Positions 45,136 through 64,000 of a stretch of 64,000 nt of DNA are shown here, piece by piece. The notes beneath the pieces were generated by a model. The model had not been told where the DNA came from, did not search any database, and saw nothing but the letters and a program-made list of their open reading frames with translations. Source of the DNA: Mobula hypostoma. Taxonomy: Eukaryota. Made by a program: the position numbers and the translations under genes. The stretch covers positions 46,378,001 to 46,442,000 of the forward strand of contig NC_086097.1 in assembly GCF_963921235.1 (NCBI RefSeq). Reading direction: 5' to 3'. Numbering within the stretch: the stretch's first letter is position 1; the number at the start of each line of letters is the position of its first letter.

Positions 45136-45419
45136 GCCTACTCTTGATGGTATAGGGAAAAAGATCTAAGTTGAACCTTCAGGCAAAGTTATGGTAATCA
45201 TCAACTGGACCTTAAATTGTGCTTTAATATCAGAAGTCCAACAGGTGTGAATTCTATGCACGTGGTGTCTGGTTCACCTGTTAACCATAAAAGTCTTTCT
45301 CAGCTTCAGCTATTGGTCTGCTATATCACCCCCTCACCTTCAATTTAACTATCAAATTTTTGTTTCAAACTTTAAACTGAAGTCTTACTGGCTTTAATAG
45401 ATGGGTATAAAAGAACTGA

Positions 45420-48400
45420 GCTGTTGGGGAGGGTTTAAACTAATTTGGCAGAGGGAGGGGAACCAGAGTGATAGGGCTGAAGATAGGGCAGTTGGTACAA
45501 CTAGATGCTGTGAGCTGTGAGACTGTCAGGAAGGACAGGCAGATGATACGACAAAATTGGGATGAGTTACAGTGTAACACCGGGACAAAATTGAAAAGGG
45601 TGATGAATACAGGACTGAAGGTGTTATATTTGAATGCGTGCAGTATATAGAATAGGTAGATGATCTTTTCGCACAATTAGAGATTGGTAGGTATGACATT
45701 GTGGGTATCACATAGTTGTAGCTGAAAGAAGATTATAGTTGGCAGTTTAATCAGAATCAGGTTTATTATCACTGGCATGTGTTGTGAAATTTGTTAACTT
45801 CACGTTAATGTTAATACCCAAGGATAAACATTGTATTGAAAGAACAGTCAGGTAGGCAGAGAGGTGGGTGGCTCTATATGTAAAAAAGTGAAATCAAATC
45901 CTTAGAAAGAGATGGGCTAGGATTGGAAGATGTAGAATCCTTGTGGGTAGAGTTAAGGAACTGCAAGGGTAAAAAGACCCTGATGGGAGTTATAAACAGG
46001 CCTCCAAACAGTAGCTAGGATGTGGGATACAAATTACAACATGAGATAGAAAATACGTGTCAAAAGAGCAAGATTATGATAGTCATGGGGGATTTCAATA
46101 TGTAGGTAGATTGGGAAAATCATATTAGTACTGGATTCCAAGAGAGAGAATTTGTAAGATGCCTGTGAGATGGCTTTCTAGAGTAGCTTGTGGTTCAGCT
46201 AGGGGAATGGTATTCTAGACTGGGTGTTGTGTAATGAACCACGTTTGATTATGGAGCTTAAAGTAAAGTAATCCTTAGGAGGTAGTGATCATAATATGAT
46301 AGACGTCACCCTGCAATTTGAGACCCCGCAGTCAGATGTATCAGTATTACTGTGGAGTAAAAGGAATTATAGAGGCATGAGAGAGCAGTTGGCCAAAGTT
46401 GATTAGAAGGGGACACTAGCAGGGATGACCGCAGAACAGCAATGGCTGGAGTTTCTGGGAGAAATTTGGAAAGCACAGGATAAATACATACAAAGGAAGA
46501 AGAATTCTAAAGGCAGGCTGTCGACAATGGCATCCAAAAAAAACTATATAAAAGCAAAAGAATGGGCATATAATAGAGCAAAAATTACTGGGAAGCTAGA
46601 GGATTGGGAAGCTTTTAAAAAGGAATAGAAGGCAACTAAAAAAGCCATAAGGAGGGAACAGATGAAATATGGAGGTAATCCAGCTAATAGTATAAAAGAG
46701 GATACCAAAAGTTTTTTGAATATATTAAGAGTAAAAGAGAGGTGAGAGTAGATATCAGAAAAACCACTGGAAAATGATGCTGGAGTGGTAGTAATGGGGG
46801 ACAAGGAAATGGTGGACAAACAAAATAAGTATTTTGCATCTGTCTTCACTTTAGAGGACACTAGCAATATGTCAGGGTGCAGAAGTCAGTGTCATTGTTA
46901 TTACTAGGGAGAAAGTGCTTGGAAAGCTGAAGGGTCTCGAGGTTGATAAGTCACTTGGATCAGATGGACCACTCCCTAGGGTTCTGAAAGAGGTAGTTGA
47001 AGAGATTGTGGAAGCATTAGTAATGATCTTTCAAGAATCACTGGATTCTGGCATGGTCTTGGAGGGTTGAAAAATTGCAAATGTCACTCCACTGTTCAAA
47101 AAGGGAAGGAGGCAGAAGAAAGGAAATTATAGGCCAGTTACCCTGAGCTCAGTGATTCGGAAGATGCTGGAGTCAATCGTTAAGGATGTGGTTTCGGGGT
47201 ACTTGGAGGCACATGATTACATGGGCCAAAGCCAGCATGGATTTTCCTTAAGGGAAATACAACATCCTGACAAATCTGCTGGAACTCTTTGAGGAAATAA
47301 CAAACAGTATTGACAAAGGAGAGTTGGTGGATGTTGTATACTTGGATTTTCAGGAAGCCTTTGACAAGGTGGCATAAATGAAGGTGTTTAAAAAGATAAG
47401 AGCCCATGGTATTACAGGAAAGATTCTAGCATGGATAAAGCAATGACTGATTAGCAGGAGGCTAAGAGTAGGAATAAAGGGAGCCTTTTCTGGTTGGCTG
47501 CTGGTGACCAGTGGTGCTCCACAGGGAACACTTCTTTTTATGTTATATGTCAATGATTTGGATGATGGAATTGATAGCATTTTGCTAAGTTTGTGGATGA
47601 TATGGAGATAGGTGGAGGGGCAGGTAGTGTTGAGGAAGCAGGGACACTGTGGAAAGACTTAGACAGATGTGGAGAATGGGCACAGAAGTGGCAGATGGAA
47701 TATCAGGAAGTATATGGCCATGCACTTTGGAAATAAAAGCATAGACTATTTTTTAGATAGCATAACATTGAAAAATCTGAGGTGCAAGGGGACTTGGGAG
47801 TCCTCATGTAGGATTCCCTGAAGGTTAATTTGTAGGTTGAGTTGGTGGTGAGGAAAGCAAATGCAATGTTAACATTCAGAATCAGAATCAGAATCAGGTT
47901 TACTATCACCGGCATGTGACGTGAAATTTGTTAACTTAGCAGCAGCAGTTCAATGCAATATATAATCTAGCAGAGAGAGAAAATAATAATAATAATAAAT
48001 AAACAAGTAAATCAATTACATATATTGAATAGATTTTTAAAAAATGTGCAAAAGCAGAAATACTGTATATTAAAAAAAGTGAGGTAGTGTCCAAAGCTTC
48101 AATGTCCACTTAGGAATTGAATGGCAGAAGGGAAGAAGCTGTTCCCAAATTGCTGATGGTAACAGTGAGAAAAGGGCATGCCCTGGGTGCTGGAGGTCCT
48201 TAATAATGGACGCTGCCTTTCTGAGACACCGCTCCCTGAAGATGGCCTGGGTACTTTGTAGGCTAGTGCCCAAGATGGAGCTGACTAGATTTACAACCTT
48301 CTGCAGCTTCTTTCGGTTTATTTCCAGAATATAAAAACAAGGATATAATGCTGAGAAATTTTGAGCCCCTTATCTAAGAAAGGATGTGCTGATAATGGAG

Positions 48401-54462: not shown

Positions 54463-56381
54463 AACTGCCGATGGGACATCAATCATCTCGACTTCACTGC
54501 ACCTTGTCCCCATTCCAGCCTCACTCCTTCGGAACACTCTGCTCTCCACTCCCTCCGCTCTAATCCTAACCTTATTATTAAACCCGCCGATAAGGGGGGT
54601 GCTGTTGTAGTCTGGCGTACTGACCTCTACCTTGCCGAGGCACAGCGACAACTCGCGGATACCTCCTCTTATTTACCCCTCGATCGTGACCCCACTAAGG
54701 AGCACCAGGCCATTGTCTCTCACACCATCACCGACTTTATCCGCTCAGGGGATCTCCCATCCACTGCTACCAACCTTATAGTTCCCACACCTCGCACTTC
54801 CCGTTTCTACCTCCTACCCAAGATCCACAAACCTGCCTGTCCTGGCCGACCTATTGTCTCCGCTTGCTCCTGCCCCACCGAACTCGTTTCTGCATACCTC
54901 GACACGGTTTTATCCCCCCTTGTTCAATCCCTTCCGACCTATGTTCGTGACACATCTTACGCTCTTAAACTTTTCGATGATTTTAAGTTCCCTGGCCCCC
55001 ACTGCTTTATCTTCACCATGGATGTCCAGTCCCTATATACTTCCATCCCCCATCAGGAAGGTCTCAAAGCTCTACGCTTCTTTTTGGATTCCAGACCTAA
55101 TCAGTTCCCCTCTACCACCACTCTGCTCCGTCTAGCGGAATTAGACCTTACTCTTAATAATTTCTCCTTTGGCTCCTCCCACTTCCTCCAAACTAAAGGT
55201 GTAGCTATGGGCACCCGTATGGGTCCTAGCTATGCCTGCCTTTTTGTTGGCATTGTGGAACAATCTATGTTCCGTGCCTATTCTGGTATCTGTCCCCCAC
55301 TTTTCCTTCGCTACATTGACGACTGCATTGGCGCTGCTTCCTGCACGCCTGCAGAACTCGTTGACTTTATTAACTTTGCCTCCAACTTCCACCCTGCTCT
55401 CAAGTTTACCTGGTCCATTTCCGACACCTCCCTCCCCTTTCTAGATCTTTCTGTCTCTGTCTCTGGAGACAGCTTATCCACTGATGTCTACTATAAGCCT
55501 ACTGACTCTCACAGCTATCTAGACTATTCCTCTTCTCACCCTGTCTCTTGCAAAAACGCCATCCCCTTCTCGCAATTCCTCCATCTCCACCGCATCTGCT
55601 CTCAGGATGAGGCTTTTCATTCTAGAACGAGGGCGATGTCTTCCTTTTTTAAAGAAAGGGGCTTCCCTTCCTCCACTATCAACTCTGCTTTTAAACGCAT
55701 CTCCCCCATTTCACATACATCTGCTCTCACTCCATCCTCCCGCCACCCCACTAGGAATAGGGTTCCCCTGGTCCTCACCTACCACCCCACCAGCCTCCGG
55801 GTCCAACATATTATTCTCCGTAACTTCCGCCACCCCCAATGGGATCCCACCACTAAGCACATCTTTCCCTCCCCCCTCTCTCTGCATTCCACAGGGATCG
55901 CTCCCTACGCATCTCCCTTGTCCATTCATTCGTCCCCCCATCCCTCCCCACTGATCTCCCTCCTGACATTTATCCGTGTAAGCGGAACAAGTGCTATACA
56001 TGCCCTTACACTTCCTCCCTTACCACCATTCAGGGCCCCAAACAGTCCTTCCAGGTGAGGCAACACTTCACCTGTGAGTCGATTGGGGTGATATACTGCG
56101 TCCGGTGCTCCTGATGTGGCCTTTTATATATTGGCGAGACCCGACGCAGACTGGGAGACCGCTTTGCTGAACATCTGTGCTCTGTCCGCCAGAGAAAGCA
56201 GGATCTCCCAGTGGCCACACATTTTAATTCCACATCCCATTCCCAGTCTGACATGTCTATCCATGGCCCCCTCCACTGTAAAGACGAAGTCACACTCAGG
56301 TTGGAGGAACAACACCTTATATTCCGTCTGGGTAGCCTCCAACCTGATGGCATGAACATCGACTTCTCTAACTTCCGCTAA
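54463..56381 (+). pseudogene. Penelope/Neptune-type reverse transcriptase-GIY-YIG ORF, 5'-truncated, frameshifted near 55870, stop near 56113
   Basis: IKPADKGGAVVV, FYLLPKIHK, PGRPIVS, MDVQSLYTSIPH, GVAMGTRMGPSYACLF, LRYIDD, FLDL, VYYKPT; ends ..DFSNFR*. Confidence 0.92.
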
Positions 56382-56677
56382 TGCCCCACCCCCCCGTACC
56401 CCATCTGTTACTTATTTTTATACACACATTCTTTCTCTCACTCTCCTTTTTCTCCCTCTGTCCCTCTGAATATACCCCTTGCCCATCCTCTGCGTCCCCC
56501 CCCCCACCTCCTTGTCTTTCTTCCCGGACCTCCTGTCCCATGATCCTCTCATATCCCTTTTGCCTATCACCTGTCCAGCTCTTGGCTCCATCCCTCCCCC
56601 TCCTGTCTTCTCCTATCATTTTGGATCTCCCCCTCCCCCTCCAACTTTCAAATCCCTTACTCACTCTTCCTTCAGTT

Positions 56678-56713
56678 AGTCCTGACGAAGGGTCTCGGCC
56701 TGAAACGTTGACT
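56678..56713 (+). ncRNA. Minimal type I hammerhead ribozyme, GUU cleavage triplet
   Basis: AGTC-CTGACGA-AGGgtctcggCCT-GAAA-CG-TT-GACT. Confidence 0.82.
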
Positions 56714-59145
56714 GCACCTCTTCCTAGAGATGCTGCCTGGCCTGTTGCGTTCACCAGCAACTTTTGCGTGTGTTGCTCTATCCACATATGTAACTTTCCC
56801 GTAATTCCATGGGCTCTTATCTTGTTAAGTAGCCTCATGTGTGGCACCTTGGCAAAGGCCTTCTGAAAATCCAAATATACAACATCCACTGCATCTCCCT
56901 TGTCTAGCCTACTTGTAATTTCCTCAAAAAATTGTAATAGGTTTGTCAGGCAGGATTTTCCTTTAAGGAATCCATGCTGAGTTCTGCCTATCTTGTCATA
57001 TGCCTCCAGGTACTCTGTAACCTCATCCTTGACAATTGACTCCAACAACTTCCCAACCACCGATGTCAAGCTAACAGGTCTATAATTTCCTTTTTGCCTC
57101 CTTGCCCCCTTCTTAAATAGCGGAGTGACATTTGAAATCTTCCAGTCCTCTGGAACCATGCCAGAATCTATCGACTTTTGAAAGATCATCACTAATGCCT
57201 CCACAATCTCCACAGCTACTTCCTTCAGAACACGAGGGTGCATTCCATCTGGTCCAGGAGATTTATCTACCTTTAGACTATTCAGCTTCCTGAGTACTTT
57301 CTCTGTTGTAATTGTGACTGCACACACTTCTCTTCCCTGCCACCCTTGAGTGTCCGGTATACTGCTGATGTCTTTCTCAGTGAAGACTGATGCAAAATAC
57401 TCACAGTTCCTCTGCCATCTCCTTATCTCCCATTACAATTACTCCAGCATCATTTTCTATTGGTCCTATATCTACTCTCACCTGTCTTTTACTCTTTATA
57501 TACCTGAAAAAGCTTTTAGTATCCTCTTCGATATTATTTGCTAGCTTCCTTTCATAGTTAATCTTTTCCCTCATAATGACCTTCTTAGTTTCCTTTTGTA
57601 AGCTTTTAGAAACTTCCCAATCCTCTGTCTTCCTACTAATTTTTGCTTCCTTGTATGCCCTCTCCTTTGCTTTAACTTTGGCTTTGACTTCTCTTGTCAG
57701 CCATGGTGGCATCCTTTTTCCCTTCGAAAATTTCTTCTTTTTTGGAATATATCTGTCTTGCACCTTCCTCACTTCTTGTATAAACTCCAGCCACTGCTGC
57801 TCTGTCATCCTTCCCGCCAGTATCCCTTTCCAGTTAACTTTGGCCAGTTCCTCTCTCATGCCACTATAATTTCCTTTACTCCACTGAAATACCGACACAT
57901 CAGATTTTGGCTTCTCTTTTTCAAATTTCACAGTGAACTCAGTCATGCTATGATCACTGCTTCCTAAGGGTTCCTTCACCTCAATCTCTCTAATCACCTC
58001 CGGTTCATTACACAATACCCAATCTAGTACAGCTGATCCCCTAGTGGGCTCAACAACAAGCTGTTCTAAAAAGCCATCTCGCAGACATTCTACAAATTCT
58101 CTCTCTTGAGATCCACTGCCGACCTGATTTTCCCAATCAACTCGCATGTTAAAATCCCCCACAATTATCATAACACTGCCCTTCTGACAAGCCTTTTCTA
58201 TTTCCTCTTGTAATTTGTAGTCCACATCACTGCAGTTGTTTGGAGGCCTATAAATAACTGCCATCAGGGTCCTTTTACCCCTGCGATTTCTTAGCTCAAC
58301 CCATAAAGATTCTGCACCTTCCTATCCTATATCGCCTCTTTCTAATGATCTAATATCATTTCTTACCAATAAATCCACGCCTCCTCCTCCCCCCGCCTAC
58401 CTTCCTATCCTTCCGATACACCGTGTATCCTTGGACGTTCAGCTCCCAGAGACATGCATCCTTCAGCCACATCTCAGTGATGGCCACAATATCATACCTG
58501 CCAATCTGTAGCTGTACGACAAGATCATCCACCTTATTCCTTATGCTGCGTGCATTTAAGTATAACACCTTAAGACCAGTATTTGGTACTTTTCGCTCTG
58601 ATTTCACTGCAACTCATCCCAATGGCTACAAATTTGCCCCACCACCTGCCTGTCTTTCCTGACATCTTTACTGCTCACTATCTTAGATTTATTTCTGTTT
58701 TCCCCTTCTTCCGCTCTATCATTCCGGTTCCCATCCCCTTGCCAAATTAGTTTAAACCCTCCCTAACAGCTCTATTAAACCTTCCCGCCAGGATATTGGT
58801 CCCCTTCGGGTTCAGCTGTAACCTGTCCCTTTTGAACAGGTCAAATATTTGTTAATGCGGGAACAAGCACTTTAAAAATGAGATTATTGTAGGATTGGTA
58901 TTAATGGATGTGCAGACTGGGTGAGCCTAAGGCCCCATTCCTGTGATGTCTCTCTCTAATTCTCTGGCTAAGAAATTTTACAGGAGATTTTCAGTAACAC
59001 CCACTGTTTCTGGAGAGGAATAAGAAGATTCAGTAGTGTGGCTTTTCAAACAGTGTTGTCAAAATATATCACTTTAGAGCTTTATCCATCAATTTTAGGG
59101 AGATAGGCAAAGAAGTTTTCACACTGAAAAAATGACCCAGGTGTA

Positions 59146-59526: not shown

Positions 59527-62500
59527 ATAGTTAGAATAGTACAGCACATTAGAGGCCCTTCGGCCCACAATGTTGTGCCGACCCTCAAACACTGCCTCCC
59601 ATATAACCCCCCCACCTTAAATTCCGCCATATACCTGTCTAGTAGTCTCTTAAACTTCACTAGTGTATCTGCCTCCACCACTGACTCAGACAGTGCATTC
59701 CACGCACCAACCACTCTCTGAGTAAAAAAACCCTCCTCTGATATCCCCCTTGAACTTCCCACCCCTTATCTTAAAGCCATGTCCTCTTGTATTGAGCATT
59801 GGTGCCCTGGGGATGAGGCGCTGGCTATCCACTCTATCTATACCTCTTAATATCTTGTATACCTCTATCATGTCTCCTTTCATCCTCCTTTTCTCTAAAG
59901 AGTAAAGCCCTAGCTCCCTTAATCTCTGATCATAATCCATACTCTTTAAACCAGGCAGCATCCTGATAAATCTCCTCTGTACCCTTTCCAATGCTTCCAT
60001 ATCCTTCCTATAGTGAGGCGACCAGAACTGGACACAGTACTCCAAGTGTGGCCTAACCAGAGTTTTATAGAGCTGCATCATTACCTCGCAACTCTTAAAC
60101 GCTATCCCTCGACTTATGAAAGCTAACACCCTATAAGCTTTCTTAACTACCCTATCCACCTGTGAGGCAACTTTCAGGGACCTGTGGACATGTACCCCCA
60201 AATCCCTCTGCTCCTCCACACTGCCAAGTATCCTTCCATTTACTTTGTACTCTGCCTTGGAGTTTGTCCTTCCAAAGTGTACCACTTCACACTTCTCCGG
60301 GTTGAACTCCATCTGCCACTTCTCAGCCCACTTTTGCAACCTATCAATGTCTCTCTGCAATCTTTGATAATCCTCTACACTATCTACAACACCACCAACC
60401 TTTGTGTTGTCTGCAAACTTGCCAACCCACCTTTCTACCCCCATATCCAGGTCGTTAATAAAAATCACGAAAACTAGAGGTCCTAGAACCGATCCTTGTG
60501 GGACACCACTAGTCACAACCCTCCAATCCGAATGTACTCCCTCCACCACGTCCCTCTGCCTTCTGCAGGTAAGACAATTCTCAATCCACCTGGCCAAACT
60601 TCCCTGGATCCCATGCCTTCTGACTTTCTGAATAAGCCTACCATGTGGAACTTTGTCAAATGCCTTACTAAAATCTATATAGATCACATCCACTGCACTC
60701 CCCTCATCTATATGCCTGGTCACCTCCTCAAAAAACTCTATCAGGCTTGTTAGACACAATCCGCCCTTCACAAAGCCATGCTGACTGTCCCTGATCAGAC
60801 CATGATTCTCTATATGCCTATAGATCCTATCTCTAAGAATCTTTTCCAACAGCTTTCCCACCACAGACGTAAGGCTCACTGGTCTATAATTACCCGGATT
60901 ATCCTTGCTACCTTTTTTGAACAAGGGGACAACATTCGCCTCCCTCCAATCCTCCGGTACCATTCCCATAGACAACGAGGACATAAAGGTCCTAGCCAGA
61001 GGCTCAGCAATCTCTTTCCTTGCCTCATGGAGCAGCCTGGAGAATATTCCATCGGGCCCCGAGGACTTATCAGTTCTAATGTATTTTAATAACTCCAACA
61101 CCTCCTCTCCCTTAATATCAACATGCTCCAGAACATCAACCTCACTCATATTGTCCTCACTGTCATCAAGTACCCTCTCATTGGTGAATGCCAAAGAGAA
61201 GTATTCATTGAGGACCTCGCACACTTCCACAGCCTCCAGGCACATCTTCCCACCTTTATCTCTAATCGGTCCTACCTTCACTCCTGTCATCCTTTTTTTC
61301 TTCACATAATTGAAGAATGCCTTGGGGCTTTCCTTTACCCTACTCGCCAAGGCCTTCTCATGCCCCCTTCTTGCTCTTCTCAGACCCTTCTTAAGCTCCT
61401 TTCTCGCTACCCTATATTCCTCAATAGACCCATCTGATCCTTGCTTCCTAAACCTCATGTATGCTGCCTTCTTCCACCTGACTAGATTTTCCACCTCACT
61501 TGTCACCCATCGTTCCTTCACCCGACCATTCTTTATTTTCCTCACCAGGACAAATTTATCCCTAACATCCTGCAAGAGATCTCTAAACATCGACCACATG
61601 TCCATAGTACATTTCCCTACAAAAACATCATCCCAGTTCACACCTGCAAGCTCTAGCCTTATAGCCTCATAATTTGCCCTTCCCCAATTAAACATTTTCC
61701 TGTCCTCTCTGATTCTATCCTTTTCCATGATAATGCTGAAGGCCAGGGAGTGGTGGTCACTGTCCCCCAGATGCTCACCCACTGAGAGATCTGTGACCTG
61801 ACCCGGTTCTTTACCTAATACTAGATCTAGCATGGCATTTCCCCTAGTCGGCCTGTCAACATACTGTGACCAGAATCCATCCTGGTCACACTTAACAAAC
61901 TCTGCCCTGTCCAAACCCTTGGAACTAATCAGGTGCCAATCAATATCAGGGAAGTTAAAGTCACCCATGATAACAACCCTGTTATTTTTGCACCTTTCCA
62001 AAATCTGCCTCCCAATCTGCTCCTCGGTATCTCTGCTGCTACCAGGGGGCCTATAGTATACTCCCAATAGAGTAACTGCTCCCTTACTGTTATTGACTTC
62101 CACCCATACTGACTCAAAAGAGGATTCTGCTACATTACCCACCCTTTCTGTAGCTGTAATAGTATCCCTGACCAGTAATGCCACCCCTCCTCTCCTTTTT
62201 CCCCTCTCTCTATCCCTTTTAAAGCACTGAAATCCAGGAATATTGAGAATCCATTCCTGCCCTGGTGCCAGCCAAGTCTCTGTAATGGCCACTACATCAT
62301 AATTCCATGTATGTATCCAAGCTCTCAGTTCATCACCTTTGTTCCTCATGCTTCTTGCATTGAAGTACATGCACTTTAGCCCTTCTACCTTCCTACCTTT
62401 ACACACTTTATTCTGCTTCTCTTTCCTCAAAGCCTCTCTATATGTTAGATCTGGCTTTACTCCATGCACTTCTTTCACTGCTCTATCGCTCCAGGTCCAA

Positions 62501-62835
62501 TCCCCCTCGCAAATTAGTTTAAAATCCTCCTGAACCATGCTAGCAAACCTACCTGCAAGGATATTGCTCCCCCCTGAGTTCAGGTGCAACCCATCCAATC
62601 TGTACAGGTCCCACTTCCCCTGAAGAGATCCCAATGATCCAAAAATCTAAAACCCTGCCCCCTGCACCAACTCCTCAGCCATGCATTCAACTGCCATCTC
62701 CTCCAATTCTTAGCATCACAATCACGTAGGACTGGCAGCAATCCTAAGAACGCCACCCTTGAGGTCCTGTTCTTCAGCCTTCTGCCTAGTTCCCGAAACT
62801 CACACTTCAGGACCTCATCCCTCTTCCTGCCTATG
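59527..62835 (-). mobile_element. Young 5'-truncated CR1 LINE (SGNH-esterase ORF1 remnant and ORF2)
   Basis: ORF1 WQLNAWLRSWCRGQGFRFLDHWDLF..DGLHLN; ORF2 with endonuclease and RT. Confidence 0.95.
59686..62634 (-). pseudogene. 982-codon CR1 frame: esterase C-terminus, AP endonuclease and RT; catalytic FADD changed to FADN; frameshift near C-terminus
   Basis: NARS, AITETW, MGDFN, SDH, NYRPVSLTS, DFSKAFDKV, GVPQGSVLGP, FADNTK; native end FFTQRVVGAWNAL lies in another frame (59508-59762). Confidence 0.9.
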
Positions 62836-64000
62836 GAAAGAAGGGATTTCATTTCAAAATTTCAATAAGCTTTGCTGTTAGAACTTCCTTCACCTTAACT
62901 GAGCTATTTGCAGTGTTAGCACCAGCCAAGCTACTTACTGAGCTCGCGATTACTTATGTGGTCAGTAGAAACTCGTTATCTGAAACTACTGTCAGCAGAC
63001 TCAAACTTCACATCTCAGCTGTGTAAATCCTCATGGGTCCTGCTAATATGCAGAATGTAGTTTTTTCTGTCAATGGCAAAGAATGGGAATCAAGTAGGAA
63101 AGGGACTTTGTGGAATTTGCCATAACTTCAGTGAAATGTTCAGTGGCTGGTCTTCACTGTCAATTTGTGATTTGTGTACGTATTCTGCTAATGGAGATTT
63201 CTGTGAACTACTCAACTTTATACTATTAGTCCTAGCCTCAGAAACAATTTTGTGACTCTCATGTTCAATTGTAATACCTTTGAATATTTGCGTTCCTGAT
63301 TTTTATAATAATAGGAGCTGTATGTTAGATTATGACACTGTTCATCAACCTACTCAGCTACATTTTGCCTTTGGCCGACGAAGCGTGAAGGAACATACGC
63401 ATTTACATCAGTAAAGAGAAGAAAACGTTGAAACAGATTTGATACAATTCGATCCATGTGAGCACATGTTATCACACTCTAGAACATTCCACAGCAGATT
63501 TTTATCCTCTGAAGGTAGCAACAAACATGCAGCAATTGCAGTTGAATGGAATAATCAAATCAAGCGGTTGGGTTGTCTATTCTTTTCCTTATAGTTATAA
63601 ATCTGAGCGTTTCAGATGTAGTCAGGAATTGAGAGGAACAGGATAAGGACATTTTTTTTTGAATGGAAGTACTGCTTGCTAATTGTCAAGGGAAAATATG
63701 TGATAGAGAAGGTCAACAGCCTTCTCCTTACAACCATGTAAGTTGAATAATGTTCAGAATATTCATTCCAGCACTGTGAACAGAAAATTCTACGTGCCCT
63801 TGATTGTACAAATGGTCATGTCAGCTACTTCAAAATTTATTATCCATTGAAGGCTGACAATTCACATGAAATTCACAGAACTTTAATGCAGAAAATTCAC
63901 TTTTTCTTCTGGAATTGATAACATGCAAAAATTGCAAATGATTAAACCTTGCAATGAAATCAGTTGATGTAGATGCAGTGGTGTATATAGCCACCATGTG

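Follow-up and report, generated by a model that had tools for sequence, protein, structure and literature searches.

A Candidate −1 Frameshift Signal at the ORF1/ORF2 Junction of CR1-Type LINEs with an Esterase ORF1

Introduction

The translation of the second open reading frame (ORF2) of LINEs is an open question; for animals, the mechanisms on record are reinitiation and 2A skipping. SART1, with a UAAUG stop-start, and mammalian L1, which reinitiates across a 63-base spacer, are both bicistronic and couple ORF2 to the translation of ORF1, according to passages of one report (PMC5972666). 2A/StopGo sequences in the ORF2s of CR1, L2, and other LINEs are likewise a virus-like form of recoding in CR1-clade elements, according to the main text of a second report (PMC3708506), in which the word "frameshift" is absent. 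A LINE precedent for −1 frameshifting is provided by TRE5-A and TRE3-A of Dictyostelium, APE-type non-LTR elements in which, according to a legend in a review (PMC5911963), a −1 frameshift is required for ORF2. In passages on retroviruses and coronaviruses (PMC3542737, PMC5009743), the polymerase ORF lies in the −1 frame behind a strong site of the form X_XXY_YYZ, such as U_UUA_AAC in IBV; U_UUA_AAC and G_GGA_AAC are listed there with the sites on which mammalian ribosomes shift most readily (PMC5009743), and equine arteritis virus tolerates a G_UU start (PMC3542737).

In open-licence text from PubMed Central and bioRxiv, no link between CR1 and ribosomal frameshifting was found, and the original turtle and chicken CR1 papers or the Repbase reports may hold one. 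In the available parts of these sources, the Drosophila telomeric elements are the only non-LTR elements mentioned in PMC5009743, the frameshift passages of PMC11835228 (which counts more than 410,000 annotated CR1 fragments in chicken, a measure of the great abundance of CR1 in birds) concern retroviruses, and the word "frameshift" was not found in PMC3894237 or PMC2881922.

Here, we describe the ORF1/ORF2 junction of CR1-type elements, starting from a 64,000-nucleotide stretch of the ray Mobula hypostoma (contig NC_086097.1, positions 46,378,001 to 46,442,000; hereafter, the window). The junction shares with the retroviral and coronaviral sites the X_XXY_YYZ consensus, its phase, the strong heptamers, and the polymerase ORF in the −1 frame. 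Unlike them, it belongs to non-LTR elements, has the stop codon adjacent to the heptamer in all intact junctions, and is mostly followed by a bare G-run rather than by a hairpin or pseudoknot. TRE5-A and TRE3-A are amoebozoan and have another ORF1, whereas the CR1-type elements keep a canonical heptamer across animal lineages. In contrast to SART1 and L1, there is no stop-start overlap, spacer, or conserved AUG, and the two frames overlap on the slippery site; and whereas 2A splits a product within one frame, the CR1 signal would join two. From these sequence comparisons, we consider it quite probable that the junction is a −1 programmed frameshift site yielding an esterase-endonuclease-reverse transcriptase (RT) fusion, common to CR1-type LINEs with an esterase ORF1.

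Three CR1 Junctions in the Window

Much of the window is CR1 sequence. The 14-mer TTTAAACTAATTTG occurs in it exactly three times, at 45434-45447 (+, copy A), 58756-58743 (−, copy B), and 62523-62510 (−, copy C), and in a tblastn search with the ORF2 of copy C as the query, these were the only CR1 copies in the window that reach the start of the endonuclease (Table 1). A sequence-only reading of the window had reported TTTAAAC-TAA followed by a G-rich tract in three CR1 copies; the exact matches confirm all three sites, at coordinates a few bases from those it gave. Its account of copy B also agrees with our translation: ORF1 ends in NILAGRFNRAVREGLN (REGLN, then the stop), T_TTA_AAC lies in X_XXY_YYZ phase right before the stop, and the −1 frame at the heptamer reads FKLIWQG. 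Copy A retains the last 20 or so bases of ORF1, and their phase agrees with that of copy B. The two are approximately 70-80% alike in DNA across most of their first 900 bases, and both are decayed, their −1 frames reaching a stop at codon 29 (A) and codon 51 (B). The ORF2 proteins of B and C are 36% identical over 301 residues. Because the window holds 20 instances of the bare 7-mer TTTAAAC and the three junctions belong to homologous copies, the window alone leaves room for chance and common descent, and the case therefore rests on distant lineages.

Table 1. Features of the three CR1 copies in the window.
Feature	Position	Strand	Basis
Copy A, last ORF1 codons; the 5'-truncated element begins about here	45418..45440	+	45418 is the first aligned base in a local alignment with copy B; reads AVGEGLN
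Copy A, slippery heptamer T_TTA_AAC, ORF1 phase	45434..45440	+	exact match, translation
Copy A, ORF1 stop TAA, abutting the heptamer	45441..45443	+	
Copy A, G-rich tract, candidate stimulator	45451..45460	+	
Copy A, decayed ORF2 (endonuclease, RT) with several stops and frameshifts	45434..47871	+	tblastn, translation
Copy B, 3' end of ORF1 esterase, final residues NILAGRFNRAVREGLN	58750..58842	−	translation
Copy B, slippery heptamer T_TTA_AAC, ORF1 phase	58750..58756	−	exact match, translation
Copy B, ORF1 stop TAA	58747..58749	−	
Copy B, G-rich tract	58730..58738	−	
Copy B, decayed ORF2; FKLIWQG frame stops at codon 51, long open pieces beyond	56371..58756	−	tblastn, translation
Copy C, remnant of an SGNH/GDSL-type ORF1 esterase; two one-base indels are specific to this copy	62517..62849	−	Lipase_GDSL_2 E=1.7e-4, below Pfam cut-off
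Copy C, heptamer TTTAAAC, one extra T ahead of it	62517..62523	−	exact match
Copy C, TAA, at which ORF1 ends in relatives	62514..62516	−	
Copy C, five-G run	62502..62506	−	
Copy C, ORF2, open over 945 codons counted from the heptamer, with the endonuclease at residues 52-257 and the RT at 539-768	59689..62523	−	tblastn, Pfam

We refer to these elements as CR1, a family name that comes from the sequence-only reading and from the link of ORF1 to bird and turtle proteins; the anatomy of such elements was confirmed here. The ORF2 of copy C matches Pfam Exo_endo_phos (E=4e-20) and RVT_1 (E=3e-33), that is, an APE endonuclease and an RT. The ORF1 fragment of this copy gives a weak Pfam match as an esterase, and its relatives at 56-89% identity carry PF13472. 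The named proteins nearest to the ORF1 piece of the window come from the rays Mobula, Hypanus, Pristis, and Leucoraja. Among NCBI gene models of rays and turtles, several (P0002, P0015-P0021, P0121, and P0177) join pieces of CR1 ORF1 to host genes, probably as annotation artefacts or through exonisation. No natural in-frame fusion of ORF1 with ORF2 was present among 21 matches of longer proteins to a 77-residue esterase query, which is weak evidence; P0009 is a frameshifted chimera.

The ORF1 tail of copy C sits in the ORF2 frame over its final 41 codons, because the T-run of the heptamer has an extra T and one base is missing at 62613. The closest protein relative of its ORF1 (P0001, 89% identity) ends in phase. 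The extra T is absent from 737 of 1673 reads of related genomes in run X21, and from a lower share of the depth in the contig runs (54,442/397,917, or 14%, in X1; 3,771/40,622, or 9%, in X14); the five reads of run X23 do not cover the site. Only 1100 X21 reads extend to 62525, just past the site, a drop in depth that would be expected if reads clip at the indel. At the other end of the element, the final 12 codons of ORF2 are out of frame past an extra T near 59725. It should be mentioned that copy C is young and that its three one-base indels (at 62613, in the heptamer T-run, and at about 59725) lie in or beside homopolymers; they may be genuine mutations or have arisen as errors in a long-read assembly.

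The Junction in Distant Lineages

Further loci were retrieved through esterase motifs upstream of the junction, and thus blind to the junction itself. Eleven representative junctions, the window copies included, fall into seven lineages with 30-39% ORF2 identity; one locus (L006) was placed in the L005 group from its ORF1 tail. A perfect X_XXY_YYZ directly before the stop is present in 9/11 junctions and in five of the seven lineages, three with U_UUA_AAC and two (L001 and L007) with G_GGA_AAC. The other two junctions are G_UUA_AAC (L008) and an imperfect G_GGG_AAU_UUU with an open −1 frame (L003). The heptamer, whose phase the sequence-only reading had proposed to check on family consensuses, is kept in phase across lineages and is swapped for another strong heptamer in two of them. 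These exchanges may or may not be independent, since the lineages are related by descent and only one of the six inner branches of their tree is well supported.

The underlying sets read as follows. Among the first 12 metagenome CR1 junctions, seven have perfect heptamers at the stop, two are the L008 and L003 junctions just described, and three (L010, L011, and L032) are mutated copies. A second set of 12 CR1 junctions, mostly from one family, consists of 11 with T_TTA_AAC and TAG and one with T_TTA_AAG. Left out of the junction set were L002 (the contig ends), L004 (ends in YLN), L009 (ends in FFN), L084 (another element), and L087 and L089, in which the script located no stop.

The strongest single case is L007, whose ORF1 extends 153 residues beyond the catalytic Asp and still ends in G_GGA_AAC and TAG, with ORF2 in the −1 frame. 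L088 is a natural intact element with an ORF1 of 357 residues from its Met and an ORF2 of 962 codons in the −1 frame, where the first Met is codon 59, past the first endonuclease motif at codon 45. The proteins related to the L088 group include entries from a tubeworm (Lamellibrachia). The sequence-only reading had spoken of vertebrate LINEs; the feature is broader, as invertebrate CR1-type elements carry it too.

Slippery heptamers are rare elsewhere in the same material: they occupy 22 of 5895 in-frame ORF2 positions, 3/33 internal Leu-Asn pairs, 4/31 internal Gly-Asn pairs, and 0/25 termini of other esterase genes. Of these termini, 17 are distinct, and one has a final Leu-Asn without a heptamer. 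The site is thus conserved at the nucleotide level beyond what the protein needs.

From the heptamer to the first endonuclease motif, the −1 frame is open in 9/11 junctions, the exceptions being the decayed copies A and B, and no AUG ahead of that motif is conserved among the 11 junctions and the related reads. Neither a −1 frame closed before the endonuclease nor a conserved ORF2 AUG, two of the findings that would have refuted the sequence-only reading, was thus seen outside the decayed copies. No Met precedes the motif in L003, L005, L006, L086, or L088, and in copy B there is none within 50 open codons after the heptamer. In copy C, the first in-frame Met (52) is at the motif and the second (59) is inside it; among the differences listed, the bases of these two codons differ in 1385/1600 and 1874/1975 X21 reads, respectively, and a further 104 differences outside this list might still include another ATG. 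L001, L007, and L008 have unaligned in-frame Mets 4-22 residues before the first Asn of the endonuclease, and L001 has a further Met three codons ahead of the heptamer. In the upstream direction, the −1 frame is closed within 1-16 codons of the heptamer in 10/11 junctions and after 41 codons in copy C, owing to its indels; there is therefore no long overlap that could hold a start. UAAUG-type stop-start overlaps were absent from the junctions examined.

The C-Terminus of the ORF1 Protein

In ORF1 phase, the heptamers encode Leu-Asn (U_UUA_AAC) or Gly-Asn (G_GGA_AAC) as the last two residues, so that the ORF1 proteins can be read for the same signal. From a total of 373 proteins, 185 were dropped (171 without the catalytic motif and 14 ending outside 20-45 residues from it), and the 188 scorable esterases comprise 125 ending in Leu-Asn, 25 in Gly-Asn, and 38 in other pairs. 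The first set contributed 93 scorable proteins from 166 (55 Leu-Asn, 8 Gly-Asn, 1 Lys-Asn, and 29 other). A search with tetrapod-type ORF1 added 105 new proteins, with Leu-Asn in 60 of the 64 scorable ones; its named sources include turtles, lizards, a snake, frogs, an alligator, and birds, and the tetrapod evidence is at the protein level throughout. Named proteins ending in Leu-Asn include those of rays, frogs, reptiles, and birds.

The residue before the terminal pair also differs between the two classes, in counts that are not independent: it is Gln or Lys in 22/25 Gly-Asn proteins and 0/125 Leu-Asn proteins, and Tyr, Cys, His, Phe, or Asn in 39/125 Leu-Asn proteins and 0/25 Gly-Asn proteins. 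This switch is as required by the X base of the heptamer. A simpler score, whether the codon before Leu-Asn can end in T (122/125), was discarded for lack of discrimination, since upstream positions score 101-122/125.

Five of the six proteins with a DGxHP motif end in neither Leu-Asn nor Gly-Asn, and the signal is therefore absent from some esterase ORF1s. As a separate observation at the protein level, P0135, P0153, P0090, P0110, and P0103 carry Lys-Asn, Phe-Phe, or Phe-Leu near the end of ORF1, tails that could encode A_AAA_AAC or U_UUU_UUN. Among the bird-type ORF1s (P0214-P0269), many are without the catalytic Asp/His motif of the esterase and keep the terminal Leu-Asn; a hand count of bird-type ORF1s without the motif gave Leu-Asn in 27/37.

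The Downstream G-Run and RNA Structure

A run of four to six Gs starts 7 to 17 bases after the heptamer in 10/11 junctions, compared with 60/1790 background windows. The exception is L007, which has a hairpin from approximately eight bases downstream (z −3.6). In folding against shuffled sequences, without an explicit pseudoknot model, this was the only clear case of a stimulatory hairpin or pseudoknot 5-9 bases downstream, the second element that such sites usually have; L005 (z −2.1) was the only other junction among the 11 to fold clearly better than its shuffles. The local fold scores of the window copies are −0.37 (A), +1.79 (B), and −2.57 (C), and the signal of copy C is not shared. Only 3 of 22 shuffle tests reached 3/100 or less (L001 upstream, and L005 and L007 downstream), and these are not taken as a shared structure. 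Duplex scans of upstream and adjacent sequence and of the region as far as 3.3 kb downstream (the long-range scan left out the 3' ends of L001, L003, L005, L007, and L008) found no shared pairing partner for the G-run. A G-quadruplex in the L005/L086/L088 group was rejected by eye, as there is a single G-run. The G-rich tract of the sequence-only reading is thus real, whereas the downstream pseudoknot or G-quadruplex that it had suggested looking for is not supported: the G-run is conserved, with no conserved pairing partner found (with quadruplexes judged by eye and pseudoknots without an explicit model). That a hairpin takes the place of the G-run in L007 fits a role for both in stimulating one event, in a single case.

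How ORF2 May Be Translated

The sequence-only reading had proposed a −1 frameshift at the heptamer and an ORF2 product fused to the esterase, and the phase of the heptamer, the open −1 frame, and the lack of a conserved AUG argue for this proposal. Most ribosomes would halt at the ORF1 stop and release an ORF1 protein of approximately 300-350 residues. A minority would slip one base back with the Leu-Asn (or Gly-Asn) codons in the P and A sites, bypass the stop, and read a variable linker of approximately 20-70 residues, followed by the endonuclease and the RT. The product would be a fusion of approximately 1250-1320 residues, comparable to a retroviral Gag-Pol. We infer that such slippage occurs, at some rate, and that the functional ORF2 protein is this fusion; the stop next to the heptamer and the G-run 10-16 bases downstream, or the hairpin in L007, would presumably act as stimulators.

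The main competitor supposes that ribosomes terminate at the end of ORF1 and resume translation close by in the −1 frame, on an AUG or another codon, with the heptamer and G-run positioning them and ORF2 made as a separate protein. The ORF1 stop always adjoins the site, Met codons precede the endonuclease in some lineages, and folding and duplex scans found no stimulatory structure, all of which would suit a restart. Passages in the literature describe this mechanism for SART1 and mammalian L1 (PMC5972666) and report that L1 accepts any sense codon in place of the ORF2 AUG (PMC1965478). However, the junctions have neither the UAAUG-type overlap nor a conserved AUG, and a restart leaves unexplained both the in-phase X_XXY_YYZ in the last two codons and the exchange of one strong heptamer for another. 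We therefore regard reinitiation as unlikely. It is very improbable that the site reflects a constraint on the C-terminus of ORF1 and the N-terminus of ORF2, or some other RNA signal, with ORF2 translated in an unrelated manner, for instance through internal entry. In most vertebrate proteins, the distance between the catalytic Asp and Leu-Asn is indeed constant at 26 residues, and FKL-x-x-QG is conserved in the −1 frame. Against this, Leu-Asn or Gly-Asn is found elsewhere at 25, 27, 28, 32, 39, and 153 residues, always at the stop, only about one in ten internal pairs of this kind is slippery, and the FKL stretch could not be translated without an upstream start.

Changes at the RNA level, either splicing to an acceptor AG before the G-run or polymerase slippage, seem hardly credible. 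CAG or TAG precedes the G-run in several junctions, and CTAAT resembles the branch point of the splice consensus; yet there is no polypyrimidine tract, and the AG is missing in copy B, L007, and L008. A base added by the polymerase in the G-run would fall past the ORF1 stop and could not join the frames, and under either process the phase of the heptamer would be irrelevant.

For the frameshift, we tentatively suggest a more specific form, which we hold to be possible and somewhat doubtful: in an animal-wide, old group of LINEs, slippage may need no local RNA structure and be stimulated by the neighboring stop together with an unpaired G-run at the mRNA entry of the ribosome, possibly via a bound host or ORF1 protein. 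If so, −1 stimulators of a new type would exist, and the elements would have an inherent means of setting the ORF1:ORF2 ratio. The junctions also supply numerous natural variants of a frameshift signal that is possibly structure-free. The conserved slippery site provides a concrete, testable answer for the CR1 group to the question of ORF2 translation. If frameshifting is correct, the real ORF2 protein starts with the ORF1 esterase, so that annotations of ORF2 from the first Met remove part of the endonuclease, and the native junction would have to be included in engineered CR1 assays.

Related Sequences in Microbial Assemblies

Esterase scans of viral contigs and a vertebrate-type scan of prokaryote genome contigs gave no relatives, and broad alignments gave no usable pattern. 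In a search of 401 genomes (399 scored), the sole match was G001, a 17.8-Mb assembly titled as a Metamycoplasmataceae MAG and the source of L088. Its 27 matches to the animal CR1 esterase point to heavy host contamination (loci L042-L046, L049-L052, L054, L055, and L058-L083).

Esterase ORFs also occur in other settings. L084 (G001:C694) has an esterase ORF followed by a CCHC zinc knuckle in another frame, and is a different element without the heptamer. L013 and L015 are retroelements, judged by eye to be DIRS-like, in which gag-like, RT, and tyrosine-recombinase-like ORFs are accompanied by a separate SGNH esterase ORF related to the CR1 ORF1 that ends without a slippery heptamer. Finally, invertebrate-type CR1 sequences lie near the ends of two bacterial MAG contigs, L047 (G002:C2, near 1,418,000) and L048 (G003:C2, near 110,500), where chimeric joins are more likely than transfer.
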